Assembly (NCBI GenBank): GCA_030267125.1
Contig: JAJDJJ010000001.1
Span: forward strand, 6,249-70,248
Direction: 5' to 3'
DNA: 64,000 nucleotides
Source: Bacteroidales bacterium OttesenSCG-928-B11
GTDB lineage: Bacteria > Bacteroidota > Bacteroidia > Bacteroidales > WCHB1-69
Positions 22,335-41,321 of the stretch are shown piece by piece. Positions within the stretch are counted from its first letter, which is position 1; the number at the start of each line of letters is the position of its first letter. The notes beneath the pieces are model-generated. The model did not search any database and was not told the DNA's origin. It saw only the letters and a program-made list of their open reading frames with translations. The translations under genes and the position numbers were made by a program.

Positions 22335-23114
22335 TTAGATTTGGGTATTATAGTCTAAGATCAGATTTTCACCTAATCTGAAGACTTGATTTTTATCTTT
22401 TATCTGATAGTCATAATTCATGTCGAAAGGGAGGAAATATTCACTGAAAAAGGCGAAAAATTCTCCCAGCAAGGTCATCCGTTCTTTGTATTTTTCAGTG
22501 GTAAGCTGTGGAATATGAATGATAAATTGCACCGTGATGAGTGCGGATTTTTCCACAAACAGGATCTCCACTTTTCGTTTAAAAAGAACTTCCAACAGCT
22601 TTTGTATCTTGTCAAAATCTCCGCGAATTTCAGAGGCTTTCAATACGAAGGGAGCTATTTGTCTGATCAGCGGATTTTTCTCTTTCTCAAGGTCAATTCC
22701 AAAATAGAATTGAATCAATTTTTCATCAATATTCTCTGAGCAATCATTAATACACTCTTCCAACAGTAAATTGTTTTCGAAGAGTATGGTATCAAAGGGT
22801 CTGAAAAAAGCTTGCAAAGCTCTCTTCTCTTTTTTAATTCTTTTAAGCTCTTTATGGTAGGCTTCTTCCCTTAAATGGAGCAAAGAACTCTCTTTAAAAA
22901 AAAGAGCTTCAGGGAGATGCCGCATTAAACCATCCCGTGAAAGTTTGACATTCAGAATATTTTTATACTCATCCATTTCAATGATCTCTTCGCTGGTATT
23001 GCGATTAAAGTGACCTGTTGCGGTGATATCGCAATAGGGGCGATTTTCGATCAGAGAAAGGAAGGTCTCTGCTTTGATATCTCCAATAGGAATCTGTTTG
23101 TCGTGGTATTTCAT
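22335..23114 (-). CDS. Hypothetical baseplate-block protein (TssG candidate by position only)
   Basis: A 259-aa cytoplasmic-looking protein. Its start overlaps the E1 stop by 4 nt, and it ends 4 nt before the tssK-like start. I could not read a diagnostic motif. Confidence 0.35.
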   Translation of the reverse strand: MKYHDKQIPIGDIKAETFLSLIENRPYCDITATGHFNRNTSEEIIEMDEYKNILNVKLSRDGLMRHLPEALFFKESSLLHLREEAYHKELKRIKKEKRALQAFFRPFDTILFENNLLLEECINDCSENIDEKLIQFYFGIDLEKEKNPLIRQIAPFVLKASEIRGDFDKIQKLLEVLFKRKVEILFVEKSALITVQFIIHIPQLTTEKYKERMTLLGEFFAFFSEYFLPFDMNYDYQIKDKNQVFRLGENLILDYNTQI

Positions 23115-24325
23115 TCGTTTTTGAAATGGATGTTTTCGTCGGCAGATAGTTCAATATAAAGAGTTTCGGAATCGGTGCTGACTTGCAGAATATCATAATC
23201 AGGGATTCCGATTTGTCGCAGTGTCAACTCCGGGTAAGGAAACTCGAAATCTATATTTTCGTATGCCTTTTGGTAAAGATCGCCGGGCAATCTTCTGAAA
23301 AGCTCATAATTAGATTCGATGTAATGGGGTATTTTACTTTCGGGCAGCATCGGTTCGAAACGCAAATTGTCGGAGCGGGTAACAATTTTATCTACAAATT
23401 TATCATTTCTCAGATTGATGGTCACATCGCTACTTCCGGTTTTTTGTTGCACCATATCAAGCAGTTCGCGAATTGTGGTATCAGCACTCAGCTCCGGGTA
23501 AGAGATAATATCCTGCCAATATTCGTGAGAGGCACAATCTTCGTCATACACATCTCCTTTATAGATTTTCATTCCCAAGTGCATTCCTTCATAGTGGAAC
23601 CAACTTTTGCAGAGCGAGGTAAAAGCGCCTGCTGCAAGTTGTTCTTTATGAATAAGTTTCATTGCTTCCTGCACTTGAACAGCTCCGATGATAGAGGCGA
23701 TAACCGGTGTTGTAGGCACACGGCCGGCGTTCATATTCCGGCGGGCAATGCCGGCACACGAGAGGCGTTGGAAGAGGTGGTTGCGCGCATTTTCTGAAAG
23801 TTCACACTCGAAACAGTTCTCTCCGGGAACAAATACTTTCACTTTACCTTCCAGATTCTCAATAGCGCCATCTACCCAAGGAACATTGGCTCTCATACAA
23901 ATACGATTGAGTTGAAGACGTGCCAAACGACTATCCAAACAAGAAATCACAACATCCATCTTTTTATATATTCCCAATCCGACATCCGTTGCAAGGTTTC
24001 CGCAAATATAGTTTACATTTACATTAGGGTTGATTTCGCGCACACGCTCGGCAGCAATAGCCGCTTTGTACAAACCCCGATCACAATCACTCTCTCTGAA
24101 TAAAATAGAACGAGTGAGATTGCTATACTCAATTGTGTCGAAATCAACAATAAAGATGGAACCGACCCCGAAAAGAGCCAGATTTTTAAGCACTTCGTTT
24201 CCTAATGCCCCAGCTCCTACAACCATCACAGAGGCATTTTTCACCTTATCCATTTCAAACCATGAGAGTAGCGTGTAAACCTCTTTTCCCCACTCTTTTT
24301 GAGGTGTTTGATCATTTGTATTCAT
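23111..24325 (-). CDS. ThiF/MoeB/UBA-family E1-like adenylyltransferase
   Basis: Has a Rossmann P-loop (VVGAGALGNEVLKNLALFGVG), an Arg-finger block (DFDTIEYSNLTRSILF), CLDSRLAR and a CxxC (CFEC). A conserved Cys-containing crossover segment is present (RLSCAGIARR...TTPVIASIIGAVQVQEAMKLI). A C-terminal extension of about 160 aa follows. Confidence 0.85.
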   Translation of the reverse strand: MNTNDQTPQKEWGKEVYTLLSWFEMDKVKNASVMVVGAGALGNEVLKNLALFGVGSIFIVDFDTIEYSNLTRSILFRESDCDRGLYKAAIAAERVREINPNVNVNYICGNLATDVGLGIYKKMDVVISCLDSRLARLQLNRICMRANVPWVDGAIENLEGKVKVFVPGENCFECELSENARNHLFQRLSCAGIARRNMNAGRVPTTPVIASIIGAVQVQEAMKLIHKEQLAAGAFTSLCKSWFHYEGMHLGMKIYKGDVYDEDCASHEYWQDIISYPELSADTTIRELLDMVQQKTGSSDVTINLRNDKFVDKIVTRSDNLRFEPMLPESKIPHYIESNYELFRRLPGDLYQKAYENIDFEFPYPELTLRQIGIPDYDILQVSTDSETLYIELSADENIHFKNE

Positions 24326-24340
24326 ATAATCCCTTCTATC

Positions 24341-25570
24341 TTAATTAAATAAATAGTGTAAGCCTAATTCAAAACCAATATTCAGAAAACGTGTATTATC
24401 TGCTTCGATAAGATTACATCTATTGCGGATATAAAGAGGATCCGTGCCGGACACTTCTCCTTTTGATAGTTTAGTAAATGTATAAGAGCAATTTACCCCC
24501 AATTTAAGCACAATCGGCAGATATTTCTTCATCGTCTGATTATAAAATGGGATATAAACTCCACCGGAAGCAAAACCGGAGAAGAGAAATTTATTCAGGT
24601 CATTATCCGTTATTTCGCGATTAATATCATACTGCCCATTTTCGATCTCCCGGATGTCGCCTAAATTTTCCCCCAATATCTGAACATGATAGCTCTTCTG
24701 ATCATAAAACTTAGAAGCGAGCTTGAAAGAGGCGACAACCCCAATCTTCCCCCAACCGCTCACTTTCATTTTCCGTGGGCAACCGATCGCGATTCCGATA
24801 GGAATATCTAAATAGAGAAGTGATAGTTTCTCATTGGCAAAATGGAAGTTATACTTACGATCATATTCTGTGCCGTCAATAGTTACATCATTTTTATAGA
24901 TAAATTCTTCGTTTAGCATATTTTGCTTGAAGACGTACCGACTAATGCCCACGCCGGCACTAAGGGTGATGGGTGTGATGGGATTGATTTGCGGCGATTC
25001 ATACATAATCTGGTAGGATTGAGAGAGAGTGGCTTCACTATTCCAAAAGGGAATTTTCGAGATATGACCAAAAAGCATGGGAGAACCCATATTGATATTA
25101 AAGAAGATTGATCCGCCGTAATGCTCTCTTTCACTGAGAGGCGCGCGTGCGGCGGGGCGATTTTTTTCTGATAGCAACGAATCTATTTGGCTGATAAGTG
25201 TCTGATTCTTTTTGCGTAGCTCTTCAATCTCTTTATCTAATTGCTCTACCTGTCCGGTCAGAAAATCAATAACAATTTGCTCTTCGGAGGTGAACAACGA
25301 ATCTTTTGGCGCATCGTTTTTCGACATTCCCGCACCCTCTTTGAGGCGGTTTAGTTCGAGTTGCAACCGATCGCGACTGCTTTTTAATTTCGCAATCTCT
25401 TTGTTGAGGTCATCCACTAATTCGTATTCAACGCTAACGAAATCTGCAGGCTGTCCACTGTAATACTCGATTTTTATCTCTTTCCCTTTATATTTCCCAC
25501 GTACCTTGTTTTGCCCGTAAGTAGTTAAAACAAAAATAGATAGTAGAATAAGCAATACCCATTTTTTCAT
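24341..25570 (-). CDS. Secreted coiled-coil protein with C-terminal outer-membrane beta-barrel-like domain
   Basis: Has a signal peptide (LSIFVLTTYGQ) and heptad-rich residues about 55-135 (LKSSRDRLQLELNRLKE..., VEQLDKEIEELRKKNQTLISQIDSL). The C-terminal half shows an alternating beta pattern and ends ...GLHYLFN. Confidence 0.5.
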   Translation of the reverse strand: MKKWVLLILLSIFVLTTYGQNKVRGKYKGKEIKIEYYSGQPADFVSVEYELVDDLNKEIAKLKSSRDRLQLELNRLKEGAGMSKNDAPKDSLFTSEEQIVIDFLTGQVEQLDKEIEELRKKNQTLISQIDSLLSEKNRPAARAPLSEREHYGGSIFFNINMGSPMLFGHISKIPFWNSEATLSQSYQIMYESPQINPITPITLSAGVGISRYVFKQNMLNEEFIYKNDVTIDGTEYDRKYNFHFANEKLSLLYLDIPIGIAIGCPRKMKVSGWGKIGVVASFKLASKFYDQKSYHVQILGENLGDIREIENGQYDINREITDNDLNKFLFSGFASGGVYIPFYNQTMKKYLPIVLKLGVNCSYTFTKLSKGEVSGTDPLYIRNRCNLIEADNTRFLNIGFELGLHYLFN

Positions 25571-25583
25571 ACGTTTATTGTTT

Positions 25584-27986
25584 TTATTTATCTTTTTCGA
25601 TGTAGGTGAATGTGGTTTTCCCGATAGTAAAAGCGATGCCGTGAGCCAGATTCAGTTTCTGTCCGACTTTCAGTTCCCTATTTCCATTTACGACAATACC
25701 TTCAGCGGTAGCTTCCAAGTAGGGTCGTTCATTTTCGATGTAAAGGATGGCATGTTGGGGGGCAATATTATCTGCCGGATCCCAATTCATTTCAAGAATA
25801 CAATCCACTCCTTTTCCGATACTTACACGGTTAAAGCCTCCGGATACACTCATCCATTTATAGATTGCGATTTCGCGTTCTTTGATCGGTCCTTCCAGGC
25901 GCAAGAAATATTTTTCGGATGCGAAATGGACGATAGAGATAGCCATTCCCAGTCCCGCGCCATAGATCATAAAGCTGAACATGGCCATAATCTCTTGTGC
26001 GAAATTGGCGAAATATAAGACAATAAAACTGAGAAAAACGGAGATTAGCCCACCGATAATAGCATTTTTCAGGTTTATTTCCGTGCGGTAAGAGATCAGC
26101 CAGGCAATGCTACATCCGAAGAATAACCATGGAATCCAGTCAAGCCAAAAACAAGAGGTGTCTTTTCCAACCAAGATGAAGATAATTCCACCAATGAGAA
26201 ACGAAAGGAATCCGATCAGCAAGCCGGCCAATGAACGGAGCGCGATCATCGCGACTACTTTGAGATCTTTTTTCTTAAATTCGATGAGATAAGAGAAGAG
26301 GAAGGAGAGGAAAAATCCTAACAACGCTCCACTCAATAACAAAGATGATATTTTGGATTGGAAATGTGCTGCAATGGAAGAGCCTTCTAATAGCTCTTTT
26401 GAAAGATAAAATACAGATACCAAGCCACTTATCAAACCGGAGAACATCTGATCGGAATAGATTATTTTGAAGAACACCCAAGTTAACATGCCGCCGATTA
26501 AGCCATAGAACATCCATCGCAAATAGTAGGGGGCGTTTCTGATATCCGATTTCTGCTCTTTATTATAGTAGTGTTTTCCTGTATTGCAATTCTTGCTGCC
26601 ATATTCGGGACACCGGTTTTTATTCTCCTCCCAGCACTCCCAATGTACGGTATGTTTGCATTTTGTGACGATCTGATCGCCGGTATTAAACTCCTCTTTG
26701 CAATGATAGCAGCGTTGACTGATCATGGCATCTCCGCTGGCCGAACTTTTCCGGAAAAGGGTTACATGTTTCTTCAGGAAAATCTGGTATTGAATGTAGG
26801 GAATCAGGAATTGGAAAAGGAAATAGATACATAGCACGAAAAGGGTTCCGAAGAGCAGGCCTTTGAAGATGATCCCGCCATTAGAGCCATTTTTTGCAGA
26901 AACAACCTCGGGGGCAAGCGGGCTGCCTTTAGAGTAGCTGTGCGATCCTTGTGCTAACGTTCCATCATGAAACATACTTAACCGGAGAGTTAACTCTTGA
27001 CCATCATATACTTTCCCGTTCGGATTGCTCATGATGATGCGGTAATCGGCTGCGATTGAGTCTAATGTGCCTACCATCAGATTCTCGAAGGCATCTATCT
27101 GGAAATTTTGGTGAAATGTGCCCTTGCTTTCATGGGACAAGCCGAAATTTGAAATGGTCAGAAGCTCATCTTTTACATCCGTAACGTTATTTTCATCTCC
27201 GAAATAGATGAAATGAATGGGGATGGGTTCCAAATGTTTCTTTTTTATCCGTGATGGGAACTCATTCAGAATTTCATCGCGCAGTGTGAAATAATCTACC
27301 CCGCCGATGAAACTGAAATCATCCATCGTTTTTCCGTTCGTTAAGACGAACATGATCTTCTTATTATTGACATCCTGAAGAATCGGATTGTGAGGAATAT
27401 TGGGGTAATGTGTTGGTTTTTCACCATATAACTCTTCCAATTTGGCAAGGAGCGCTTTGTAAAGAAACTTCTCTCCGGATGATCTCTCCCAGCCTTCCCA
27501 CGTAAAATCGTCAATGGTAACCTGTTTGCTTTCCGTCACCCCGTTATCCATAAATGCAAGAAAGACTTTGCATCCGGGAAATTCTTTGATCAGCGCGCCC
27601 ACAGCTTCTTTCTGCTTATTCAACATGCCGGTGGAGATAGAGGCACTGCGATCGGCAAGAATGAGAATCGAGTAGTTGCTGGGAATCACTTTCTGTCCGC
27701 GAATATCAATAAGAGAGTCTATTTCAGGATTAAATTTCGGACGGGAGCCTGTTTCTGTTACTGTAAAATACTCTGCTCTAAGATTATTCAGATTTATTTT
27801 AGAACCATTATCCATGAATTTTATCTCGGCAGATATGTTTTTCACGTTAGGGGAAAGGCTGAAATTAACAAATTCTATGCTGTAGTTATCTTTCAGATTT
27901 CCTGTAGGGGGAATTTCAGGGGCTTCTTTTTTGCTACAAGCAGTTAAGAACAGGCATAAAAAGAGGAGATAATATATCTTTTTCAT
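25584..27986 (-). CDS. Lipoprotein-anchored vWA / RING-H2-like zinc finger / polytopic TM / FHA multidomain membrane protein (E3 candidate)
   Basis: Lipobox: FLTAC. vWA MIDAS motif: ILILADRSASIS (DxSxS, residues 112-116). TM1 is followed by KKHVTLFRK. Residues 426-467 read C-x2-C-x13-C-x-H-x2-H-x2-C-x7-C-x7-C (CYHCKEEFNTGDQIVTKCKHTVHWECWEENKNRCPEYGSKNC), at nt 26586-26711. About 6-8 further TM helices follow. The C-terminal FHA-like pattern is VSIGKGVDCIL...APQHAILYIE...GIVVNGNRE...L.HG..FTIGKTTFTY (nt 25596-25844). Confidence 0.75.
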   Translation of the reverse strand: MKKIYYLLFLCLFLTACSKKEAPEIPPTGNLKDNYSIEFVNFSLSPNVKNISAEIKFMDNGSKINLNNLRAEYFTVTETGSRPKFNPEIDSLIDIRGQKVIPSNYSILILADRSASISTGMLNKQKEAVGALIKEFPGCKVFLAFMDNGVTESKQVTIDDFTWEGWERSSGEKFLYKALLAKLEELYGEKPTHYPNIPHNPILQDVNNKKIMFVLTNGKTMDDFSFIGGVDYFTLRDEILNEFPSRIKKKHLEPIPIHFIYFGDENNVTDVKDELLTISNFGLSHESKGTFHQNFQIDAFENLMVGTLDSIAADYRIIMSNPNGKVYDGQELTLRLSMFHDGTLAQGSHSYSKGSPLAPEVVSAKNGSNGGIIFKGLLFGTLFVLCIYFLFQFLIPYIQYQIFLKKHVTLFRKSSASGDAMISQRCYHCKEEFNTGDQIVTKCKHTVHWECWEENKNRCPEYGSKNCNTGKHYYNKEQKSDIRNAPYYLRWMFYGLIGGMLTWVFFKIIYSDQMFSGLISGLVSVFYLSKELLEGSSIAAHFQSKISSLLLSGALLGFFLSFLFSYLIEFKKKDLKVVAMIALRSLAGLLIGFLSFLIGGIIFILVGKDTSCFWLDWIPWLFFGCSIAWLISYRTEINLKNAIIGGLISVFLSFIVLYFANFAQEIMAMFSFMIYGAGLGMAISIVHFASEKYFLRLEGPIKEREIAIYKWMSVSGGFNRVSIGKGVDCILEMNWDPADNIAPQHAILYIENERPYLEATAEGIVVNGNRELKVGQKLNLAHGIAFTIGKTTFTYIEKDK

Positions 27987-28095
27987 ACGGTTGTGTTTTT
28001 TATTCTAAGGTCGTATGTAGCTCGCATGAGGATGATAATCATAGCCTTGAGTGATTTTTGGATCATGCGCGGTTCATACGGTTATGTTTTTTTAA

Positions 28096-29829
28096 TTAGG
28101 CTCTTTTTCTTCGCATCCAAGCCTTGAGATCGGTTAATGATATTTTCTCATTCTCATCCATTGAGAAAATACCTTTGCTATTTTTGCGGGCAATTCGGAT
28201 CTCTTCATCAGAGCAGTAGATGATCAGAAAACCAAAGCAATGGGTGGTTTTCAAGTATCTTTCACGGATGGTTTCAAAAGAGGAGTTGGTGTCGAAGATC
28301 AGACAACCCACCGCTCCATTTCCGCTTTCGGTATAACAACTGTCAATTTTAACTACTTGTCTGTGAGGAATACTCTCGGAGAAAAAGTAGCCGGAAACGC
28401 CTTCCGAAGAGGAGTAGAGAATGTCATCCATTTCGTTGATCGCTTTTCCACTGAATGAGATTTTAAAGTTATCAGCCGGTTGACCTTCGGGAGTATAATA
28501 CGAGTGTTCTTCTGTTTTATCGGTCTTCGATGTGGAAATTGTTCCGCTGCCATCGCGGCTCCATTTGTAAAGTTCATCTAACGAGTGGAATAGTTTTATG
28601 TCATCCTTGTTGTTCATCTCGCCATTGAGTTTGGGTGTGAAAAAAACCATATCCCAATGGGGTGTGTTTGTGTCGATTACAATAGCAACCATGCGATTTT
28701 TATCTTCAGGATACGCCAACTGCTGTTGTACTTTCAGATCATAATTTGAAAGGAAAATGCCAAGTCCCGGATGGGAGTGCATCCAGCAATTGTGTACATA
28801 TTCGCGATGTGTTTTTTGTGAAAGATCGTTGATTGTATTGGCTAATTTCACTCCGATTTTTTTACCGAAATTGAGGTTGTACTCCCCATAGATCGCATCA
28901 TCACCCGGCTCTATAATATATTCTAAACTAATATTATAAGATGTTTTTTCAGGGTTAGCGTATTCCCAACAACCAATAAGATAGCATCCGGTTTCGTTTG
29001 TCCGTTCGGGAATTTCGAGGAAGTGCTTGAAAAAATCATAGATACCTTTGATTGCTGAACGGCTAATCAGAATAGTCTGAATGGCAGTGTCTTCAAAAAC
29101 CTGATTCATGTGGATGACATAGTAGTTGTCGATATCTTTGCGAACATGTTTCAGGCCTACGTCAAAGTTCTCTTTCTCTTCCATTACTACAGTCAACGAG
29201 TTGGTTTCGTTATTTTCCTCTTTTTTCACCTTTTTCTTCTTCCGGTTCAGGATTAAAATAATGATAACCAAGATGATGATAACAGCTATAGCGTAGGGCA
29301 TCCATCCTGAAAGGAGAGAATGTATTGTTGAGTTTTCCGAGTTTTCCGAGTTTTCCATGTTGGAAGAGAGAGGGGATTCGCTCTCTTCATTCTCAAAAAC
29401 GATAACGACACTATCCTTAATATTATATTTTTCATCTAAAAGATCGGAAGTGGCATTTTCATCGAAATAATAAAAATAGATCACATTATGGGCAGGTAGC
29501 TCCGATTTTTCCATGAAAGATTCTAATGTGGTGTAATTCCCTTCCATGATGTCGCGCTGATTCGCGTCGCTGTTTAGCAATCCGGATTTGCCATCGATAT
29601 AGCGCGCGCGGGTAAAAAAGCTTAACGGAAGATTGTGGTCCCCTCTTCTGAAACGAATCGATAGTGTTGTGTTATTTTTAATCGTTAATGTTTCATTTTC
29701 AAAATTATATGTCGCTTTAACCTCTTCTTGCGCATGAATCAACGAGGAGTTTGAAATAAAAATCAAGAATAGGAGAAACGTCCGCATCGTTCGGGATGCA
29801 AAGCTAAAGGGTTGGGGTCGGTTCTTCAT
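28096..29829 (-). CDS. Bitopic membrane protein with cytoplasmic JAMM/MPN+ (JAB) metalloisopeptidase domain
   Basis: The signal peptide/N-terminal domain is followed by a TM helix (WMPYAIAVIIILVIIILIL) and then NRKKKKVKKEE (positive-inside). The full JAMM motif is present: E279 (ETGCYLIG) and H351-S-H353-PGLGIFL-S361-NY-D364, i.e. HxHx7Sx2D, at nt 28738-28779. The start may instead be Met15 (29787). Confidence 0.8.
   Translation of the reverse strand: MKNRPQPFSFASRTMRTFLLFLIFISNSSLIHAQEEVKATYNFENETLTIKNNTTLSIRFRRGDHNLPLSFFTRARYIDGKSGLLNSDANQRDIMEGNYTTLESFMEKSELPAHNVIYFYYFDENATSDLLDEKYNIKDSVVIVFENEESESPLSSNMENSENSENSTIHSLLSGWMPYAIAVIIILVIIILILNRKKKKVKKEENNETNSLTVVMEEKENFDVGLKHVRKDIDNYYVIHMNQVFEDTAIQTILISRSAIKGIYDFFKHFLEIPERTNETGCYLIGCWEYANPEKTSYNISLEYIIEPGDDAIYGEYNLNFGKKIGVKLANTINDLSQKTHREYVHNCWMHSHPGLGIFLSNYDLKVQQQLAYPEDKNRMVAIVIDTNTPHWDMVFFTPKLNGEMNNKDDIKLFHSLDELYKWSRDGSGTISTSKTDKTEEHSYYTPEGQPADNFKISFSGKAINEMDDILYSSSEGVSGYFFSESIPHRQVVKIDSCYTESGNGAVGCLIFDTNSSFETIRERYLKTTHCFGFLIIYCSDEEIRIARKNSKGIFSMDENEKISLTDLKAWMRRKRA
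29330..29356 (-). repeat. Three perfect 9-bp tandem repeats (gagttttcc) encoding (ENS)3
   Basis: Read directly from the sequence. They lie in the predicted periplasmic part of the JAMM protein (MENSENSENS). Confidence 0.9.
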
Positions 29830-30550
29830 CTTTTTTCTTGGGTTTGATTTTCAATTTTGCACGAACGATATTATAGATCATGAAAAAGGCAGCCAGCGTA
29901 ATGGTAACTTTGAATACAATATCCATTACATTGATTCGCTTAGACTTCAGTGTGATGATCTGTTCGTAAGTGGTTTTTATCTCTTCATGCTTTTTGTTAA
30001 GGAGTTCATCGCCATCAAAAAGAGCTTTGTTTGCAAGGTATTCATTTGAGATATCGTTGTACGTTGTATTCGCTTTGGTTTGTGCCATTTCTAAAGAATC
30101 GTGATCTTTATTTGCCACGTAATTTGTCGCGGATTCATACAATTGTTTAAAATGGGCATCGTATTTGTCGAAATTAACTAACAATTTCTCTTTATTTTTC
30201 TGCACGCCTTCCTCTGCTTCCAATTCAGCGATCTTTTTTTTGATTTCGGTATTCAAGATTTCATAATCGGAATAGATGTCGAACAGCTGTTTGCGATTAT
30301 CCACGATCATTTTTTTATTCTCATTGAAGTAGTCTTCCATATAAAAATTACTGGTAGCCAGATCTTTTTCAATGAGAGCGATATCGTCGAACTCTTCTAA
30401 TTTCGCACTGATTTGTTGAAGTTCGCTATATAATTCCGTCATATATTTTTTTGCCATTTTAATGGAATCTATTTGCGAAAAAGCGGATGAGTTCCCGCAA
30501 ACTAAGAGGGTTAAAAGGGCAGAAAAAGCGATTAGTTTTTTTCTGATCAT
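29804..30550 (-). CDS. Periplasmic coiled-coil protein with C-terminal membrane anchor
   Basis: Has a signal peptide (ALLTLLVCGNSSAFSQ) and a long helical/heptad region. The C-terminal TM helix (VFKVTITLAAFFMIYNIV) is followed by RAKLKIKPKKKDEE. It overlaps the JAMM gene start by 26 nt. Confidence 0.55.
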   Translation of the reverse strand: MIRKKLIAFSALLTLLVCGNSSAFSQIDSIKMAKKYMTELYSELQQISAKLEEFDDIALIEKDLATSNFYMEDYFNENKKMIVDNRKQLFDIYSDYEILNTEIKKKIAELEAEEGVQKNKEKLLVNFDKYDAHFKQLYESATNYVANKDHDSLEMAQTKANTTYNDISNEYLANKALFDGDELLNKKHEEIKTTYEQIITLKSKRINVMDIVFKVTITLAAFFMIYNIVRAKLKIKPKKKDEEPTPTL

Positions 30551-30557
30551 GGGAATG

Positions 30558-32048
30558 TTATTTAACGGTGGATTGGAATAATTTTTTTGCTCCTTCGTAC
30601 ATTGCGATCGCGTCTTTCACTTTTCCTGTTTTGCAAGACGCCGGCAAACTTGAAAGTTTCTTGTCCATCAACTTTGTTATTTTTCGGAAATCGGTTTTTA
30701 CACTTTCAGATTTTGAGTTTTTATACCGCGATACTAATTTGTTGATTTGAGTAGAAGCTTCTAAAATATCTTCGGCTTTCACATCGCAATTTGTTTTTGA
30801 GCCGGAATTAGATCCGGAAGATGCTGATGATGAGGTTTTGGGGTTTAACTGGTTGATTTCAATAAGTAGATAGCGATACACTTTTTCGCAAGCTGCAATC
30901 ATGTCGCAACGATTTCCTTTAGAACTTTGCTCGCGAACAGCAATGTATTTCTCCTCATTAAAATTGGAAACCGTTTTCAAAATAGCCGTGAAAACCGCTT
31001 GATTGTTATTGCCCTTCGCATCCAATAATTCAGCTTTTTTGCTCAGTAATATCGCAATATCTTTCTGTATTTCCCGCAAAGTAGCCATATTTTCCTGATG
31101 GGAACAGGGTTTATCCACTTCGCAGGATAAGCTCTCCACTTGTTTGAATAATTCACGGTAAACTTTCACCGAATCGGCTAAGGTCGGACAGCCGTGGAAA
31201 GTGTATTTGTTCTCCAGACTCAGCACTCTATGATCTTCAATAATATCATCGCGCAGGATGTTGAATTTATCGCAAGACCCACTGACACTGGAGCTTATTT
31301 CATCTTTTAACCCCTGCAATTTCACACCTAATTTGGTAGTCTCTTTCCCCACAACTTCCATTACTTTTGCTTGATCGGTGCAGGCATTTCTTTTAATCAT
31401 GAAATAAAATTCCATATCTTTTATCGCATACTGCAAAAGCATTTTCTTTTTCTGTGAAAAGTTGACATACTTGTAAATGACAGGGATGGGGTTGTTTAAA
31501 TAGATGATAGGATTAGATGCAACATCTTCAATGTCAAACTCTAATGTGTAAGAAGAGCGGCCTTTCAGGTAAACCAACTGATCGGCCATTTTATCCTCTG
31601 AAGAGGAGATCAGGGGAGCTGCAAAATCGAAACTTGTTTTGCTATGTTTTAACTGTTTGGTAGTAACCCCTTTTTTGATTATTCCTGTTCCTTTTTTATC
31701 TTTTTTCAGATCTTTCCCAACCAAGGCTTTTTGCTCATACTTTGCTTTTATCTCTTTGGAAATTGCTTTTACGGACAACTCTTCGTTGGGAAACCAAATC
31801 ACATTATACGGCAATTCACTGTTGCGCACGGGTTGATAGTGGATGGTCATGGTGAGTTTTTCCGTTTTTTGATCAAATCCAAACTCAAAAGTAACGGGAA
31901 TAGTTGGCGTTTTCTCTGAAACGCTCTCTAATTCTATTTTCGTTGTAAACGATTTATTATCTTCTAAATTAATATAATACGTTTTTTGTGCAACGATTTG
32001 GGTTAAAAGTGAAAAGATAAAAAAGCAAAAGAATATTATTCTTCTCAT
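30558..32048 (-). CDS. Secreted Cys-containing helical protein of unknown function
   Basis: Has a signal peptide (FCFFIFSLLTQIVAQ). The 496-aa protein has an N-terminal beta-rich part and a C-terminal helical part with about 10 spaced Cys residues. It sits between the E2 and the coiled-coil gene with gaps of 8-12 nt. Confidence 0.5.
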   Translation of the reverse strand: MRRIIFFCFFIFSLLTQIVAQKTYYINLEDNKSFTTKIELESVSEKTPTIPVTFEFGFDQKTEKLTMTIHYQPVRNSELPYNVIWFPNEELSVKAISKEIKAKYEQKALVGKDLKKDKKGTGIIKKGVTTKQLKHSKTSFDFAAPLISSSEDKMADQLVYLKGRSSYTLEFDIEDVASNPIIYLNNPIPVIYKYVNFSQKKKMLLQYAIKDMEFYFMIKRNACTDQAKVMEVVGKETTKLGVKLQGLKDEISSSVSGSCDKFNILRDDIIEDHRVLSLENKYTFHGCPTLADSVKVYRELFKQVESLSCEVDKPCSHQENMATLREIQKDIAILLSKKAELLDAKGNNNQAVFTAILKTVSNFNEEKYIAVREQSSKGNRCDMIAACEKVYRYLLIEINQLNPKTSSSASSGSNSGSKTNCDVKAEDILEASTQINKLVSRYKNSKSESVKTDFRKITKLMDKKLSSLPASCKTGKVKDAIAMYEGAKKLFQSTVK

Positions 32049-32059
32049 GAGATTAAATT

Positions 32060-32674
32060 TTAAAGATTACTATCGACAAATTCTTTAATCCAGCCATTGG
32101 GTTCAGCTTGTGTGAGCACCCATTCCGCCACTTTCGTGTCTTCGGGAAAGGGAGGGATGTTCTGTGCATGGTACTTATCATAGCGAAGGTAGGCTGTAAT
32201 GCGTTCAATATAGTGGGCTAAATCGACAAAAGTCCCGTATGCTTTTGTATTCAAGCATACTCGTCCTGCGAAGTCGCCAAAAAAGCGGATGTTCGGATGC
32301 CAAGGGTGTGGAATCTCTTTTCCGAAATTATCGGTTGTCCGAAACATAAATTCCAATTTGGAATCAACACTTGGATAGTTGTTTGGAATGTTAATGCGAA
32401 GGAAAAACTCGTTATGTTTCAGCGGTTTCTGAAGTCCATTTTCATCAGGGGCACTAACATTGCAGAAAGATTCGATATTGTAAATCACTTCGTAAACAAT
32501 GGGAAGACCCTCTGCATTTCTTTTGCGGATAATATAAGAGATCTCTGTGCTGTTTTTTAACTTTTCGTCAATGGCTTCCCACTCGCGAAATAATCGAGCA
32601 CTGCGCCCCGAAAACTTCTTTCCTCTGTATTCATCTATTTCTCGTGCCATATATCCTCCTTTCTTAGCCTGCAA
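32060..32674 (-). CDS. UBC-fold E2-like ubiquitin-conjugating enzyme
   Basis: Has the eukaryote-type landmarks in order: RLFREWEAIDEKL (N-terminal helix), FFLRINIPNNYPSVDSKLEF (YP...P.v.F block), HPN (residues 126-128) and GRVC(140)LN, the catalytic-Cys context (nt 32255-32299). The annotated start overlaps the Ubl gene's end by 11 nt. Met9 (32650) is an alternative start. Confidence 0.8.
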   Translation of the reverse strand: MQAKKGGYMAREIDEYRGKKFSGRSARLFREWEAIDEKLKNSTEISYIIRKRNAEGLPIVYEVIYNIESFCNVSAPDENGLQKPLKHNEFFLRINIPNNYPSVDSKLEFMFRTTDNFGKEIPHPWHPNIRFFGDFAGRVCLNTKAYGTFVDLAHYIERITAYLRYDKYHAQNIPPFPEDTKVAEWVLTQAEPNGWIKEFVDSNL

Positions 32675-32981
32675 CAGGATCCATGATTACGTCCAATGTC
32701 TCTCCTGTTTTGACGTTATAATCGCGTAGACACTGTTCCGTTTTTCCAATTTTGGGATGTAAAATGATGTCATTCCCGTTCTCATCTTTCTTGCCAAAGA
32801 AATATTCTACGATAACGCCGTCACTGTCCACATTAGGAAGATCAAAATGCGGATTGCCATCCTTATCTCTACTCATTTTCAAATTATCCATCAGTAGTCC
32901 CAGATTTTTATTCGGATCATCTAATTTGTACTTGACGGTTTTATTCTTATAGCGTATTCTAACATAAAACTCTTCTGCCAT
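32664..32981 (-). CDS. Small ubiquitin-like (beta-grasp candidate) protein with free C-terminal glycine
   Basis: The 105-aa protein ends ...TLDVIMDPVAG, immediately followed by TAA (Gly codon at 32667-32669). It is the first gene after a 235-bp intergenic gap and lies directly upstream of the E2. Its alternating beta-strand/helix pattern is compatible with a beta-grasp fold, but the fold has not been verified. Confidence 0.6.
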   Translation of the reverse strand: MAEEFYVRIRYKNKTVKYKLDDPNKNLGLLMDNLKMSRDKDGNPHFDLPNVDSDGVIVEYFFGKKDENGNDIILHPKIGKTEQCLRDYNVKTGETLDVIMDPVAG

Positions 32982-33215: not shown

Positions 33216-33989
33216 TTATCCTTTTTTGGGTGGAGCTTGTGGCGCTGGCGGCTTGGGTTTGGCGTTGACAATCTCTCTTTTTCCTTCCGGTTTGGGCAAT
33301 GGCTTTCGGACAGATTGCCGGTTTTGTGAAGAATTTTCAGGCTTAGAATAGGGCTTCTTCAGCTCCGCAACATTCATCATGGGTGAGCAGTGTGGCGGCT
33401 GAATAGCCAAATCTTCAACCTGCTCTTTCACAGGTATCTCGGGTTGTTTTTTTACCGCTATTTCCGGCGTGATTTCGGAGGTTGTTGCCAAGCTCTCTTC
33501 GGGGAGAGGAGCCACTTGGGAAACCACTGGCGGATCGGGGCTTATCTTTGGCACCGGCGGATTAGTATTTACTTTTGGCGCCGATGGATTTGTGTTTACT
33601 TTTGGTGTCGGCGGATTAGTGTTTATCTTTGGTGCCGGCGGATTAATGTTCACTTTTGGCGCCGGCGGTTGAGCGGATTTTGTCACCGGCGGCCGCGTGG
33701 GTGGCTGAGGCGATCGGGGCGGCATATTGCTCGTCGGGGGAGTCGGGGCGGAGGGTTTCGGAGATTGCGGCTTGGCAGGTGCAATCGGCTTCGTCTCTGT
33801 TGTAAGAGTTATTTCCGGCTCCGGTGAAATGGAGCTGTCAGAATCAGAGATGACAATTTCGGCCTCCGACTCCTTTTTAGGCGTGATTTTTTCTTTTATC
33901 CTTTTGCCCTCATCAACGACATATCCCACTTTGCTGCCCACATGTTTTGCCGTCCAGAATGCTCTAATAATGTCCTTAATATTTGCCAT
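33216..33989 (-). CDS. Proline-rich repeat protein (no signal peptide) downstream of the effector
   Basis: A 257-aa protein whose central part is five 9-aa repeats (xPK[VI]N[TI]NPP) within a longer P/A/K/T-rich tract. Its start is 13 nt after the effector stop. Confidence 0.55.
   Translation of the reverse strand: MANIKDIIRAFWTAKHVGSKVGYVVDEGKRIKEKITPKKESEAEIVISDSDSSISPEPEITLTTETKPIAPAKPQSPKPSAPTPPTSNMPPRSPQPPTRPPVTKSAQPPAPKVNINPPAPKINTNPPTPKVNTNPSAPKVNTNPPVPKISPDPPVVSQVAPLPEESLATTSEITPEIAVKKQPEIPVKEQVEDLAIQPPHCSPMMNVAELKKPYSKPENSSQNRQSVRKPLPKPEGKREIVNAKPKPPAPQAPPKKG
33546..33680 (-). repeat. Five 27-bp tandem repeats inside the proline-rich gene
   Basis: Units start at 33546, 33573, 33600, 33627 and 33654 (consensus ttttggygccggcggattartrtttay on the plus strand). 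Confidence 0.9.
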
Positions 33990-34001
33990 ATCTTATCCTT
34001 T

Positions 34002-36419
34002 TTAAATCAAATTATCTTTAAAATAGGCTTCATTATCAAAATGAACCCAAAACTCTTTTTCGCCATCTCTATCCGGATCAAAATGGCGAATACTTATTTC
34101 TATCCACTTCCGGTTATTGAGTGTTTTGATTGCGTACTGCACAATCTCATCTTCTGTAAAATGCTCATTTTTTGAAGATTTACAGCCGGAAAGCGGGAGT
34201 AGTTTCCTCTCTATTTCATCCCAATCCGAGGGCGAGGAGATCTCTTTTCCCCATGTCTTCAAGTGCAGAGCAATAGCTCCTCCCTGATATTTCGGGGAGA
34301 AGTGTTTTCCCTCATTTTCATAATCCGGACAGCGAAAGCCGATAATTTCATTGATTTTGAATTTACTATCCAACTTTTGAGCCATATAAAATCGCAACGC
34401 GCTCACCGTCCACAACAAAGCGGGATGTATGCCGTGGCTTTTTCCCCAAGAGTTGCACTTATTGCAGCGGCAGGTATAGGCTTCCAACGGTTCTCTGTAT
34501 TTTTTCGAGAAAGTCTTCATGGCGGCCAATGTTTCAAGGTCAACAACGCCTGTAGGCAGTGCCATCTTCATGTAATCCCTTTGGAATTGCCTTACACACT
34601 GTTCGGTGCGATCGGTGAAATATTCGGAAGGCGCGGTACCGCCAAATCCGGACAAGCGAAGATTAATCTGTCGTACAACCTCTCCCAGATCTCCGTTTTT
34701 ATAAAGTGTCATTCGCTGCATCTGCTCTACAAAATAGACCGGATGAAAGTGATACGGAAGATAATTTCCCTTCAGTTCCGGAACCTGATCCCAAAATCCA
34801 TAATCCAAAAATTTCTTTTGCAGCGAATCAAGGTGAGGCTCTTTGGCATCCAAGATGGTCTTTCTCATCTCCGGATCTTCATATTTGGCGTAAAATTCAA
34901 TAATAGTATCCAATTCGGAGATGAAATAGTTCGCGGTCGCTTCTCCGGCCCATTCGGTATAATGCGTGGCAATCATACCCATAAATTGTCGGGCAATAGT
35001 GCTATCTTTCATCATCAACTTCATCTTCTCATCAGCACTAAAAGGGTCTCCACCAACATATTGACTATATAGTGAACCCTCTTCATCGCGCAATTGGGCA
35101 ATATATTTTTTGAGAAACTCTTCATGCCCGGAATAGATAAATTGATCGGGGAACCAATCTATTGTATTACGATCCACGATATGAAACCCCCAACGATGCC
35201 AGTCCCAAGAAGATACGGTTTGGAAGAGATCATCATTCTCTTTAATGCGCAACCAACGATCATGATATTTGATGAAATACCAGAACGTGTCTTCCTGCTC
35301 CGCTTTTCTTTGAAAGGGAATCATATACCCTGCTGCAAAATTGAATTTTTTGTCAATATGATTTTCCACAGAGCTAAACATCTGCTCCAGAACTCTTTTC
35401 GGCAGCTCGATCGTATTGTCTTTCGGGTCTTTTTTCCGGTGCATCAACAAATGGGAATCAATCCAGAAAGAGGAGGGATGATCCTTGTAATCAATCCAAA
35501 GCAAAAGGCGTTCCCGATTGGAGCCATCTTTGGGGAGCTCTTCCTGAAGTTGCAATCGGTTATTATTCCAAAGCATTCCATCGAACTTGTTATTCACTCG
35601 TTTGAAAGCAGTTTCCGGAACAGCATAACTATTGGTTTGGGCATCAAAGATGATATCCTTTTTGAAGATGACCCGTTTCTTTTTAACAATTTTTATCTTT
35701 GAAAAGCCATTTTTCTGTTCTAAAACCTGCACCGACCAGCTCCCTTTGATTTTGCGTGGAGGATACTGTTGCAAAGCGGCGGGTTTTAGAAGCTGGATAT
35801 GGCTTTTTAAAAGAGTGTCGTATTTGATGTTGGCGGATAGTAGATTGTGAATGGTATTGATATCGAAAGAGAATATTTCAAAATGGCACACTTTGTAGTT
35901 TGCTATTTTATTTACGCCACAGAAACCGGTATAGCCCAATTCGGTTCCGGCGGGGATTTTAATATTGCAATTGCCGATACCGTTTAAAGGGAAACGGGCT
36001 TCATCCCATCTATCCGCATGATCCGGGGATTGGAAAAATGAGGGAATTGTTCTCTTCTGTCTAACGATTTCCGAAATTGGAAGCAGGTGCATATAAAGCG
36101 AATAGAAGATAAACTCTTTCTGGTCTAATGGGTTGTTTTTATCAGAATAGGAGAAATGATGTTTTAGTAAGATGAAATTTCGCGAGTAGTATGTCGGGCG
36201 CGGATCATTGGTGGTTTTAGGAGCGGAAAGATATTCATTGTCAAAGCGATAGGCTATTATCTCTCCATCGGAAATAGAGCGAACCATCTCATCTCCTTCG
36301 AGATGAGCGCCGCCATGCCAGGTTCCGGATCTACCGAGAGGATAAGTTCCCCCGATAGGATGCGCTCGAAAATAGTCGTCAGTGGAATGAATAGAAGATA
36401 TGGGATAGTAAAAATGCAT
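34002..36419 (-). CDS. Large putative T6SS cargo effector with LytM/M23-like N-terminal domain and peptidoglycan-binding-like C-terminal region
   Basis: It lies immediately downstream of vgrG and the DUF4280 gene. The M23-like pattern is WHGGAHLEGDEMVRSISDGEIIAY ... YSLYMHL ... GTELGYTG ... KVCHFEIFS, with the metal ligands partly substituted. A PG_binding-like segment is present (CVRQFQRDYMKMALPTGVVDLETLAAM). A Cys-rich stretch follows (CRCNKCNSWG). There is no signal peptide. Confidence 0.55.
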   Translation of the reverse strand: MHFYYPISSIHSTDDYFRAHPIGGTYPLGRSGTWHGGAHLEGDEMVRSISDGEIIAYRFDNEYLSAPKTTNDPRPTYYSRNFILLKHHFSYSDKNNPLDQKEFIFYSLYMHLLPISEIVRQKRTIPSFFQSPDHADRWDEARFPLNGIGNCNIKIPAGTELGYTGFCGVNKIANYKVCHFEIFSFDINTIHNLLSANIKYDTLLKSHIQLLKPAALQQYPPRKIKGSWSVQVLEQKNGFSKIKIVKKKRVIFKKDIIFDAQTNSYAVPETAFKRVNNKFDGMLWNNNRLQLQEELPKDGSNRERLLLWIDYKDHPSSFWIDSHLLMHRKKDPKDNTIELPKRVLEQMFSSVENHIDKKFNFAAGYMIPFQRKAEQEDTFWYFIKYHDRWLRIKENDDLFQTVSSWDWHRWGFHIVDRNTIDWFPDQFIYSGHEEFLKKYIAQLRDEEGSLYSQYVGGDPFSADEKMKLMMKDSTIARQFMGMIATHYTEWAGEATANYFISELDTIIEFYAKYEDPEMRKTILDAKEPHLDSLQKKFLDYGFWDQVPELKGNYLPYHFHPVYFVEQMQRMTLYKNGDLGEVVRQINLRLSGFGGTAPSEYFTDRTEQCVRQFQRDYMKMALPTGVVDLETLAAMKTFSKKYREPLEAYTCRCNKCNSWGKSHGIHPALLWTVSALRFYMAQKLDSKFKINEIIGFRCPDYENEGKHFSPKYQGGAIALHLKTWGKEISSPSDWDEIERKLLPLSGCKSSKNEHFTEDEIVQYAIKTLNNRKWIEISIRHFDPDRDGEKEFWVHFDNEAYFKDNLI

Positions 36420-36500: not shown

Positions 36501-36971
36501 TCAGAATCCAAATTCAATTTCAAAAGCACCTCCTCCAAAACTTTTGGCATTAAATTGATGGCCTCGGGAGTTGACAGTACCGGCACCTTCGGCGCAAGTT
36601 TTCCCGGTAGTAATAAAATCAATCATTCCACCCCAGAGGCAGGTAAGTTTGCAATTATCCAGCAGTGCCGGCATATTTTTCAGCAGTACGGTAGGAGCGC
36701 CGGGAGCCCACGGAGCAACGGTATTTGGGATGCACGGCATCGGGGTCAACACGCCGAACGCCGCCGCTGTGGCCGCCGCAACTTGCGGATTAGCCATGGA
36801 TTTGCACATCCCGAAAGGCAAAATGTTCACCATGGGTTTCATATCCATAATGTTGGCCATAGGCATACTCCCCGCCACCAAAACCATCTTGTCCGGTAAA
36901 ACCATAAAGGTGGATGGCGCCATGCCGAAACTGCATTTTATAGTTGCACTATTGCAGACGAAATTTGCCAT
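36501..36971 (-). CDS. DUF4280 (PAAR-like) spike-tip protein
   Basis: The N-terminus (VCNSATIKCSFGMAPSTFMVLP...MANIMD..P.VNI.PFGMC.S..NP) is the characteristic DUF4280 pattern. Its start is 4 nt after the vgrG stop. Confidence 0.7.
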   Translation of the reverse strand: MANFVCNSATIKCSFGMAPSTFMVLPDKMVLVAGSMPMANIMDMKPMVNILPFGMCKSMANPQVAAATAAAFGVLTPMPCIPNTVAPWAPGAPTVLLKNMPALLDNCKLTCLWGGMIDFITTGKTCAEGAGTVNSRGHQFNAKSFGGGAFEIEFGF

Positions 36972-36974
36972 GAA

Positions 36975-38948: not shown

Positions 38949-38984
38949 GGTATTTTTTTTAATAATATAAATAGATCCTTTTTA

Positions 38985-39383
38985 TCAGAAGAGATGAAAT
39001 TCGCAGTTATCTCCAAATTTAATAACTCCCGCTGAAATAGTGAGTTTCATAATCATCTGGGAATCGGTTTCTTTATTGAAATTTTCAGAAAGCCCGACAC
39101 AATAGGCATCTCGAAATCCGAAACACCGGGTTGAGTCTACATGATTATTGTTTACGATGAAAGTGATGACTCCATCTTTAGAGGCAAACTTGTCTCTCAT
39201 CCATTCGTGAAAAATCAGGTCTGTGTCATCGGGAGCAACGATAGTGATATTGATTAATCCTCCCTTCGGACTTTCGGAAGGTCTTCCGTTTGAATCAATC
39301 TCTTGCGTAAACTCGTATTCACATTCTATCACATCATACTCTACATTGCTGCCTTCGATTTCAAATGTTGCCTTGAGTGCCAT
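38985..39383 (-). CDS. hcp: Hcp/TssD tube protein paralogue 2
   Basis: The 132-aa protein has the same layout as the upstream Hcp (V.ECEYEF.Q..D..GRP...P.GG.I.I......D....EWM......DG.I.F). It is adjacent to vgrG. Confidence 0.7.
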   Translation of the reverse strand: MALKATFEIEGSNVEYDVIECEYEFTQEIDSNGRPSESPKGGLINITIVAPDDTDLIFHEWMRDKFASKDGVITFIVNNNHVDSTRCFGFRDAYCVGLSENFNKETDSQMIMKLTISAGVIKFGDNCEFHLF

Positions 39384-41303: not shown

Positions 41304-41321
41304 GATTATATCTCTTAAAGG

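Follow-up and report, generated by a model that had tools for sequence, protein, structure and literature searches.

A candidate ubiquitin-type conjugation cascade within the conserved gene core of a Bacteroidales type VI secretion system

By its list of parts, the closest described relative of the system reported here is the operon of Candidatus Caldiarchaeum subterraneum and Asgard archaea that encodes ubiquitin (Ub), an activating enzyme (E1), a conjugating enzyme (E2), a small RING finger protein (srfp) and Rpn11, which processes the Ub precursor (pro-Ub) and removes conjugates; some complete Ub/E1/E2/RING/Rpn11 operons also occur in a few bacteria (Hennell James et al., 2017; PMC5654768). 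The secretion machine with which it has to be compared is the Bacteroidota type VI secretion system (T6SS), T6SS(iii), which in its canonical form requires TssN, TssO, TssP and TssQ as well as TssR and carries tssN between tssK and tssG (PMC10781749). The Bacteroidales genetic architectures GA1-GA3 all encode the TssN-R set (PMC4714493), and a 2024 survey of gut Bacteroidales T6SSs describes GA1-GA3 only (PMC10942478). Here we analyse a stretch of 64,000 nucleotides (nt) from Bacteroidales bacterium OttesenSCG-928-B11 (GCA_030267125.1, contig JAJDJJ010000001.1, positions 6,249-70,248), hereafter called the window, in whose numbering all coordinates are given. Its T6SS gene string also encodes a ubiquitin-like protein (Ubl), an E2, an E1, an 800-amino-acid (aa) RING membrane protein (RING800), a protein with a JAMM peptidase motif (JAMM577) and the proteins p496, p248 and p409. 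Our data suggest that a group of T6SSs widespread in gut Bacteroidales uses ubiquitin-style tagging of proteins in its construction or control. We consider it fairly probable that the locus represents a distinct Bacteroidales T6SS architecture, in which a T6SS(iii) tail and baseplate share a conserved core with a eukaryote-like Ub-type cascade, the membrane complex is centred on the RING protein and a T6SS component is tagged.

In the window, all five part types of the Caldiarchaeum operon have counterparts: a ubiquitin-family modifier, an E1 that scores equally well against UBA1-type enzymes and MoeB, an HPN-type UBC E2, a candidate RING E3 and an Rpn11-like JAMM protein. Here, however, the RING forms part of a polytopic membrane protein of 800 aa, along with VWA and FHA domains, the JAMM protein is membrane-anchored and dispensable in most lineages, Ubls of the window type end in a single Gly (A-G or P-G) rather than in Gly-Gly, and the genes belong to the core of a Bacteroidales T6SS rather than to a free-standing operon. 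With T6SS(iii) the window shares the TssC and Hcp Pfam families, ClpV, VgrG, a DUF4280 PAAR-like protein, TssE, TssF and TssK (Coyne, 2016, PMC4714493; Bongiovanni, 2024, PMC10781749), and a VWA lipoprotein of about 800 aa closes the block of envelope genes, as tssR closes tssQ-O-P-R. TssR is a lipoprotein of about 790 aa with a VWA domain and no transmembrane (TM) region (PMC10781749; PMC4714493), whereas RING800 has seven TM helices, a RING and an FHA domain; in addition, E1 and not tssN lies beside tssG-tssK, and Ubl, E1 and E2 are added. The window system falls outside the GA1-GA3 architectures.

Beta-grasp modules at the cytoplasmic side of a secretion membrane complex are known from YukD and EccD of the type VII secretion system and from TssN (PMC1779556; PMC10781749). 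The EccD and TssN domains are fused and YukD is reported as not conjugated (PMC1779556), whereas the Ubl of the window is free, has an exposed C-terminal Gly and comes with its own E1 and E2. The anti-phage cyclic-oligonucleotide-based system CBASS (Cap2/Cap3) and the Bil systems likewise bring together E1/E2 chemistry, a peptidase of the JAB family and a bacterial beta-grasp modifier (PMC10557695; PMC11601603), but the window has neither an E1-E2 fusion nor a CD-NTase, its E2 keeps the HPN motif, a candidate RING ligase (E3) is present, and the context is a secretion machine and not a defence island. An assignment to CBASS type II was rejected on the grounds that E1 and E2 are separate genes, that there is no CD-NTase and that only the E1 adenylation domain matches Cap2 models. 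PADLOC v2.0.0 (2023), which may lack Bil models, gave no match for the E2, Ubl and JAMM proteins, and the similarity of the E1 was generic. A ThiF/MoeB sulfur-carrier pathway was also rejected, as E2, RING and JAMM proteins are present and the string holds no sulfur-transfer genes; the NCBIfam ThiF/MoeB models score the E1 at 133 bits, against an equivalog cut-off of 275 bits. One Bil system is said to modify a phage tail protein. In the H1-T6SS of Pseudomonas aeruginosa, the PpkA/PppA/Fha1 threonine-phosphorylation pathway acts on assembly, and there too a membrane protein joins a periplasmic VWA to a cytoplasmic modifying domain, with an FHA domain and an opposing eraser encoded in the T6SS locus. 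The writer of the window would be a candidate RING E3 with E1, E2 and Ubl instead of a kinase, and also the main candidate for a structural membrane component; the eraser would be a JAMM protein instead of a phosphatase, and the FHA domain is without the canonical phosphothreonine residues.

A T6SS with an E1/E2/Ubl module was found described nowhere in the literature searched (full-text searches and the main papers on T6SS(iii) and on prokaryotic ubiquitin). Burroughs, Iyer and Aravind, in their 2011 work on prokaryotic RING fingers, reportedly may have noted TM-bearing bacterial RINGs near Ub, E1, E2 and JAB genes, and the Pfam text for Prok-RING_1 presumably describes bacterial versions with TM helices and these same neighbours. 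In that case the Ubl operon may itself have been noticed in 2011, but since Bacteroidota T6SSs were recognised only after that year, the T6SS connection would still be new. What would be new is the combination of T6SS(iii) with a prokaryotic Ub-type cascade; each kind is known already.

Comparison of related loci strongly supports the view that the genes of the module are inseparable from T6SS genes and that the linkage is obligate in both directions. When one genome per species was scanned, relatives of the E2 were present in 295 genomes, the carriers including Caecibacteroides pullorum, Mediterranea massiliensis, Bacteroides mediterraneensis, Millionella massiliensis, Parabacteroides distasonis An863, Xylanibacter ruminicola D31d and many Alistipes, Prevotella and Paludibacteraceae metagenome-assembled genomes (MAGs). 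We read 84 E2-anchored loci over 10 kb on each side of the E2 gene and counted the parts by hidden Markov model (HMM) searches (labels such as L032 denote related loci from other genomes or metagenomes). Module parts were found at high frequency (Ubl in 83 loci, p496 in 81, RING800 in 78, E1 in 73 and p248 in 70) together with T6SS parts (p259, a TssG candidate, in 68, TssK in 64, a PAAR-like protein in 57, TssF in 49 and TssE in 48). The two sets, vgrG counted with the T6SS parts, were interleaved in 84 of 84 loci, which upholds the proposal of a first-pass annotation of this DNA that the module is integral to the T6SS and not a chance neighbour.

The gene order itself varies. That of the window runs VgrG-PAAR-Ubl-E2-p496-p248-JAMM-RING-p409-E1-p259-TssK, the commonest is PAAR-...-E1-p259-TssK-TssE-TssF-Ubl-E2-p496-p248-RING, and a third, found in L032, reads ClpV-TssB-TssC-Hcp-Hcp-VgrG-PAAR-Ubl-E2-p496-p248-RING-E1-p259-TssK-TssE-TssF and forms a compact operon of 17 genes that contains T6SS genes, the module and nothing else. 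Two blocks, Ubl-E2-p496-p248-(JAMM)-RING and E1-p259-TssK, are unbroken in all three orders. The same T6SS context surrounds two of the most distant RING800 homologues (29% identity). A further 80 metagenome loci, many of them from human gut, were picked by the similarity of their TssC to that of the window and are close relatives only (67-77% identity), with no canonical T6SS(iii) locus among them to set against TssN-R; all 12 that reach the baseplate genes show TssG candidate-TssK-TssE-TssF-Ubl-E2 (in two of them the E1 region was not called as a separate open reading frame, ORF), three more extend only to E1 and the others end sooner, at the 10-kb limit or at contig ends. No locus with the module and without T6SS genes was found among those read (84 E2-anchored, two RING800-anchored and the TssC-anchored loci); the survey of E1/E2/Ubl co-occurrence with T6SS genes in Bacteroidota that had been called for now shows linkage from E2, RING800 and TssC anchors. 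TssC genes 67-70% identical to that of the window are common in contigs labelled human gut metagenome (L093-L127 and others), which shows that such T6SSs also occur outside rumen and animal samples.

The five assignments made at first pass withstood profile, structure and conservation tests, Foldseek searches included. The Ubl gene (32664..32981, minus strand) encodes 105 aa ending in ...DPVAG-stop. The window protein itself has no Pfam match; among 20 diverse members of its family, 12 match Rad60-SLD, nine match ubiquitin and five, weakly, match YukD. In the family profile, residues 69-101 align with ubiquitin residues 40-72; the window reads CLRDYNVKTGETLDVI there, opposite what we take to be TLSDYNIQKESTLHLV in ubiquitin. 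An AlphaFold2 model (13 sequences; pLDDT 76, pTM 0.60) has the beta-grasp order beta-beta-alpha-beta-beta-...-beta, and of the 50 best PDB matches that Foldseek gives for it almost all are ubiquitin, SUMO and other ubiquitin-like domains, with probability 1.0 and TM-scores of 0.6-0.73 (normalised by target). Gly is the final residue in 79 of 84 family members, with endings such as ...PFPG, ...PIAG and ...VIAG, while the remaining five continue for two or three residues past it. The modelled fold, the family similarity to ubiquitin and this exposed terminal Gly all bear out the candidate as a beta-grasp modifier with an accessible C-terminal Gly.

The five longer Ubls, with tails GAK, GHK, GLK, GTN and GGR (L025, L026, L027, L028 and L035), are natural pro-forms, and all five come from loci that contain the JAMM protein. 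More generally, tails in ...IAG, extended or not, co-occur with the JAMM protein, whereas none of the 48 Ubls ending in ...FPG or ...IPG does so. This split fits a processing and deconjugating role for the JAMM protein; the loci are interrelated and the association is not statistically independent.

The E2 (32060..32650, minus strand) is a UBC-type protein. The first-pass annotation was right in its UBC fold, HPN motif and catalytic Cys, and most likely wrong in its length of 204 aa and in naming C140: the ORF listing extends to a TTG at 32674, and translation probably starts at the ATG at 32650, as in the identical database protein P0001, so that the protein has 196 aa, HPN at 118-120 and its catalytic Cys at position 132. 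The residues W117-H118-P119-N120 and C132 do not vary among 30 homologues with 45-76% identity to the window E2, and 23 of these 30 members match UQ_con in Pfam (best 1.7e-6). Compared with the PDB, the family profile finds exclusively UBC E2s with HPN and active Cys aligned (best E2-25K, 0.0019), which points to a UBC-fold E2. The family comprises at least 841 clusters at 90% identity, nearly all from uncultured Bacteroidales.

The E1 (23111..24325, minus strand; 404 aa) consists of a ThiF/UBA adenylation domain (aa 25-253) and a C-terminal extension of 150 aa. As the earlier reading had it, this is a ThiF/MoeB-type enzyme (ThiF in Pfam, 1e-54) in which the motifs GAGALG, DxDxxExSNLxR, CLDSRLAR and CFEC are all present. 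Among solved structures it matches the adenylation domains of UBA1, UBA7, UBA6, SAE2 and UBA3 at 1.8e-24 to 1e-20 (UBA1 1.8e-24) and MoeB at 6.6e-22, and so appears as near to UBA1, UBA7 and SAE2 as to MoeB. Across 68 homologues there is no variation in the nucleotide-binding residues (GxGxxG and the Asp/Arg motifs) or in C129, C171, C174, C190 (part of the crossover loop), C264 and H267; C171/C174 with C264/H267 likely form a zinc site, and E1 activity is predicted from the nucleotide-binding motifs and conserved Cys. The extension is conserved and has no PDB match by sequence, and a domain like the ubiquitin-fold domain of E1 enzymes is thus not demonstrable. The stop codon of E1 overlaps the start of p259 by 4 nt, and the gene always lies directly upstream of p259-TssK. 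Across the family the catalytic signatures of all parts, which had been described as intact, are conserved, and they are under purifying selection.

RING800 (25584..27986, minus strand) was noticed at first pass as an inner-membrane protein with a RING-H2-like pattern, and this stands; what had been missed are a periplasmic VWA and a C-terminal FHA domain. From its N-terminus the protein has a lipoprotein signal, a beta domain, the VWA domain (27027-27674, aa 105-320), a long TM helix (TM1, aa 369-407), the RING-H2 (26562-26720, aa 408-470), a bundle of six TM helices (25929-26522, aa 489-686) and the FHA domain (25596-25910, aa 693-797), all read from an AlphaFold2 model (34 sequences, pLDDT 81.5) together with, for the RING, the conserved ligands and, for VWA and FHA, Foldseek. 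The latter matches the model to integrin I and VWA domains and to the FHA domains of GarA and FhaA (TM-score 0.74-0.82, target-normalised); the FHA domain also bears a weak resemblance to the cytoplasmic domain of YscD. As six helices, an even number, separate the RING from the FHA and one TM helix separates off the VWA, the first two would both be cytoplasmic and the VWA periplasmic, and the RING, FHA and JAMM domains are all predicted to face the cytoplasm at the inner membrane. The RING motif, C426-x2-C429-x13-C443-x-H445-x2-H448-x2-C451 with C459 and C467 as further candidate ligands, is invariant in 34 sequences 24-47% identical to the window protein, save for C429 in one. Of these 34, 26 match zf-RING_2 and 24 Prok-RING_1, all under the cut-off, and VWA and FHA are also matched across the family. 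The profile of the whole protein gives weak integrin I-domain matches in the PDB and the RING of RNF126 at E = 0.069. With the TM region as query, phmmer retrieved 121 clusters out of 1.84 billion representatives, all of the protein's own family; nearly all are 770-830 aa long and match at the same position, and the short ones are gene fragments with RING or FHA sequence. The idea that the TM bundle plus FHA might be a TssN homologue was rejected on this sequence-level result.

JAMM577 (28096..29829, minus strand; 577 aa) has a signal peptide, an N-terminal periplasmic domain, a strong TM helix (176-194) followed by a KKKK stretch, an Rpn11-like JAMM domain (28540-29187, aa 215-430) and a C-terminal domain. 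The metal-site motif E279...H351-S-H353-x7-S361-x2-D364 is invariant in 30 homologues and conforms to the JAMM/MPN+ pattern E...HxHx7Sx2D; the domain profile matches Rpn11 (1.3e-10), CSN5 (9e-6), AMSH and BRCC36, and 17 of 18 family members match JAB in Pfam. The membrane anchor and intact motif of the proposed deconjugase are therefore as first described, whereas its membership of the conserved core is not, JAMM577 being present in 31 of 84 loci, all from the window's sub-lineage. p409 (24341..25570, minus strand), with a signal peptide, a coiled coil and a C-terminal region, is accessory as well (25 of 84 loci, exclusively JAMM-containing ones). The five-part toolkit is accordingly complete in the window, and the family-wide core consists of Ubl, E2, E1, RING800, p496 and p248, without JAMM.

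p496 (30558..32048, minus strand) is a conserved envelope protein whose N-terminal hydrophobic segment is a signal or anchor; after HMM iteration it was found in the 81 loci counted above, always after E2, and it has no Pfam match and only chance-level matches in the PDB profile search. p248 (29804..30550, minus strand) has a signal peptide, a helical periplasmic region, a C-terminal TM helix and a Lys-rich tail, with hydrophobic segments at 6-24 and 208-226. Among the ORFs of 18.7-44.3 kb and the scanned flanks, Pfam and NCBIfam gave no match to any protein of the TssN-R set, in libraries not confirmed to model all five, and the window, which has the T6SS(iii) tail and baseplate set of TssB/C, Hcp, VgrG, TssE/F/G/K and ClpV (TssB and TssG by position), is thus without a TssN-R set detectable by sequence searches. 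In the compact operon L032 the only three envelope proteins are p496, p248 and RING800. These three are the sole candidate membrane complex and would form the trans-envelope anchor of this T6SS type, to which JAMM577 and p409 would add in the window's lineage.

Enzymatic activity, RING E3 function, the nature of the substrate and a role in assembly are what we infer from these parts, and a mechanism can be proposed. E1 would adenylate the exposed C-terminal Gly of the Ubl, take it onto Cys190 in its crossover loop and hand it to Cys132 of E2. RING800, p496 and p248 would stand in for the TssNOPQR membrane complex, and the RING-H2 of RING800 would recruit the charged E2 and so bring about ligation of the Ubl to a protein on the cytoplasmic side of that complex. 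The likeliest target would be a T6SS component, whether a baseplate subunit, a membrane-complex subunit or RING800 itself, because the candidate E3 and the peptidase are both anchored in the machine itself, because E1 is translationally coupled to the TssG candidate and always stands beside TssK, and because the module is constant while effector genes vary. Docking, assembly or recycling of the T6SS would require this tagging, and in the window's sub-lineage the JAMM peptidase may trim pro-Ubl and remove conjugates, making the mark reversible. The mark could be a reversible assembly licence comparable in logic to the PpkA/PppA/Fha1 pathway, a permanent structural adduct or a disassembly tag. 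The stronger statement, that this is a fourth widespread Bacteroidales T6SS architecture (rumen, chicken and human gut) in which the RING-E3 complex replaces TssNOPQR and Ubl tagging is obligatory for assembly, firing or recycling, seems to us an evenly balanced proposition.

Several points weigh against a RING-centred architecture with its own tagging cascade. The final ligand pair of the RING is C-x7-C where C-x2-C is canonical, and its conserved Trp lies at +1 and not +4 from the sixth ligand, so that RING E3 activity is not assured. In the FHA domain the Arg and Ser that canonically bind phosphothreonine are missing (it reads GK... and PQH), which makes phospho-independent binding more likely. 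Pfam scores of the window E2 and of the window RING protein fall under the curated cut-offs. TssB and TssG are assigned by position alone, and the absence of TssN-R is an absence in sequence searches; remote kinship of the lipoprotein-VWA half of RING800 with TssR, or of p496 and p248 with TssP, TssO and TssQ, is possible. At least 48 of the 84 loci have no ORF with a JAMM motif within 10 kb of E2, and reversibility can therefore not be a general feature.

Part of this evidence could also be read as a constitutive conjugate of the Atg12-Atg5 kind, in which a single, irreversible ligation joins the Ubl to a subunit of the membrane complex or of the baseplate, where it serves, without any switch, as a beta-grasp docking module that replaces the ubiquitin-like domain of TssN. 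The cytoplasmic domain of TssN is reported to be ubiquitin-like, to bind the baseplate and to link the membrane complex to TssK (PMC10781749), TssN itself was detected by neither Pfam, NCBIfam nor phmmer, E1 always adjoins TssG-TssK, the position of tssN in canonical loci, and in most loci, which lack a JAMM gene near E2, the Ubl ends in ...PFPG-stop and needs no processing. We nevertheless hold an irreversible conjugate to be rather unlikely, as the window's sub-lineage keeps an intact, invariant Rpn11-like peptidase, and pro-forms account for five of its Ubls as against 25 others, which points to deconjugation besides processing; genomes without JAMM in the locus could encode a peptidase elsewhere, and such a conjugate would be a special case of tagging of a T6SS component rather than a truly exclusive alternative. 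The same is true of a disassembly or quality-control tag that would mark contracted sheaths, spent baseplates or damaged membrane complexes for ClpV, comparable to ubiquitin and Cdc48/p97: clpV lies in the same operon in the window and in L032, and Rpn11 and CSN5, the nearest JAMM relatives, act beside AAA+ unfoldases or cullin ligases, yet we regard this role taken by itself as improbable.

That the Ubl is instead attached to cargo (Hcp, VgrG/PAAR or effectors), as a loading or export signal or for delivery into target cells, is suggested by the window's gene order, where Ubl-E2 directly follows vgrG, PAAR and the variable effector region, and by the use of a ubiquitin homologue, BfUbb, as a weapon in Bacteroides (PMC5705921; PMC11467351). 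In the commonest order, however, Ubl-E2 follows tssF and not the spike genes, the module is invariant while effector genes differ between loci, and the RING and JAMM domains are tied to the inner membrane and not to the tube or spike, and cargo tagging accordingly appears unlikely to us, if a shade less improbable than a pure disassembly tag. By far the least credible is an unrelated Ubl module that merely hitch-hikes with the T6SS, whether an anti-phage system (Bil or like CBASS Cap2/Cap3) or a sulfur-carrier pathway of the ThiS/MoaD type. In bacteria, E1/E2/Ubl/JAB operons are known to act in defence (PMC10557695; PMC11601603) and the E1 adenylation domain matches the PADLOC Cap2 'E1-E2' models (1.5e-15). 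Against this, linkage to the T6SS is universal in both directions in the loci read, the module being split into two blocks that alternate with baseplate genes in varying order, no PADLOC model matches the E2, Ubl, JAMM or RING protein, the locus is without CD-NTase, E1-E2 fusion, rhodanese and sulfur-metabolism genes, and the reading frame of E1 overlaps that of the TssG candidate.

Should tagging of a T6SS component by this cascade prove true, ubiquitin-like ligation at the membrane complex would be a new layer in the assembly and control of contractile injection machines, and gut Bacteroidales would have a T6SS architecture missed by the GA1-GA3 scheme and by TssN-R-based detection, which matters for surveys of antagonism in gut microbiomes. 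Bacteria would thereby have a first secretion machine shown to operate with a ubiquitin-type system of its own, as well as an experimentally tractable, complete cascade with a known cellular client. To our knowledge the prokaryotic Ub/E1/E2/RING/Rpn11 toolkit has otherwise no known natural substrates; the T6SS would be a concrete bacterial client for this eukaryote-like toolkit, with several carriers in culture, and RING800 would be a natural case of a RING E3 built as a polytopic membrane protein coupled to a periplasmic VWA.

In the window the genes form a minus-strand string of 22 co-directional ORFs running from 44329 to 18694, in the order clpV, tssB, tssC, hcp, hcp, vgrG, the DUF4280 PAAR-like gene, genes for an 805-aa and a 257-aa Pro-rich protein, Ubl, E2, p496, p248, JAMM577, RING800, p409, E1, p259, tssK, tssE, tssF and the gene for a small lipoprotein. 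All five parts lie in this single packed string on the minus strand, where the first-pass annotation had placed them. From clpV to tssF the spacing is -26 to +234 nt, mostly between -26 and +110 nt; the widest gap, 234 nt (32982-33215), lies upstream of the Ubl gene and may contain an internal promoter that serves the half of the operon from Ubl to tssF. A promoter and terminator scan of 18.0-37.9 kb gave counts at the level of shuffled sequence, with a sigma-70 tool that does not cover Bacteroidota promoters. On both sides the string is bordered by housekeeping or unrelated genes, with mnmA upstream and, downstream, cysN/cysD, a porin-like gene and an AbiE toxin-antitoxin pair, which makes the locus a self-contained T6SS cluster about 25.6 kb long.

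The genes for ClpV, TssB, TssC, two Hcp proteins, VgrG and the PAAR-like protein occupy 36501..44329 (minus strand) and were assigned by Pfam (TssB by position): TssC (PF17541) at 1e-108, the two Hcp proteins as TssD (PF17642) at 1e-31 and 1e-32, DUF4280 at 1e-34, VgrG as a Phage_GPD/Phage_base_V match and ClpV as an AAA_2 match. On the other side of the module, p259 (22335..23114, minus strand) has no match in Pfam, NCBIfam or the PDB profile search and is taken as a TssG candidate for its position, which in each of the loci that have it is between E1 and TssK. It is followed on the same strand by tssK (21461-22330; TIGR03353, 2.7e-9), tssE (21005-21451; GPW_gp25 and TIGR03357) and tssF (19259-20989; a weak T6SS_TssF match, 7.5e-4). 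The 805-aa and 257-aa proteins make up a variable cargo region (33216..36419, minus strand) that is not conserved in related loci. The former has a PG_binding_1 match (2e-6), and this peptidoglycan-binding-domain protein is a putative effector. The 257-aa protein (33216-33989, minus strand), encoded between the putative effector and the Ubl gene, consists mostly of Pro-rich tandem units PPxPK[VI]NTNP...; it has no Pfam match and no conservation among related loci, and could be an immunity or adaptor protein.

A few further observations concern the surroundings. The last gene of the string (18694-19149, minus strand) encodes a 151-aa protein with a lipobox-like ...MTSC and has no homologue in any of the related loci examined. 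A few kb from the T6SS locus, an AbiEii nucleotidyltransferase toxin (PF08843, 5.9e-30) with an upstream DUF6088/AbiEi-like antitoxin (5.4e-52) lies at 13580-15183 (minus strand) and is, judged by these matches, a putative type IV toxin-antitoxin or abortive-infection pair. In loci of the commonest gene order, a 231-238-aa protein with a match to RRF (ribosome recycling factor) in Pfam is encoded next to the DUF4280 PAAR-like gene, just before E1 (L003, 3570-4286; L087, 264-959), whereas the window has nothing comparable; L003 and L123 encode a protein of about 455 aa beside it, the L003 copy with a PEGA domain. Finally, 3 kb upstream of clpV the window encodes an 876-aa protein with Transglut_core and Big_1 domains (47418-50048), and a similar 890-aa protein lies 2.4 kb past the RING800 gene in L003, a Bacteroides sp. 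MAG (17474-20146), which could reflect a shared chromosomal neighbourhood or a recurrent accessory gene.

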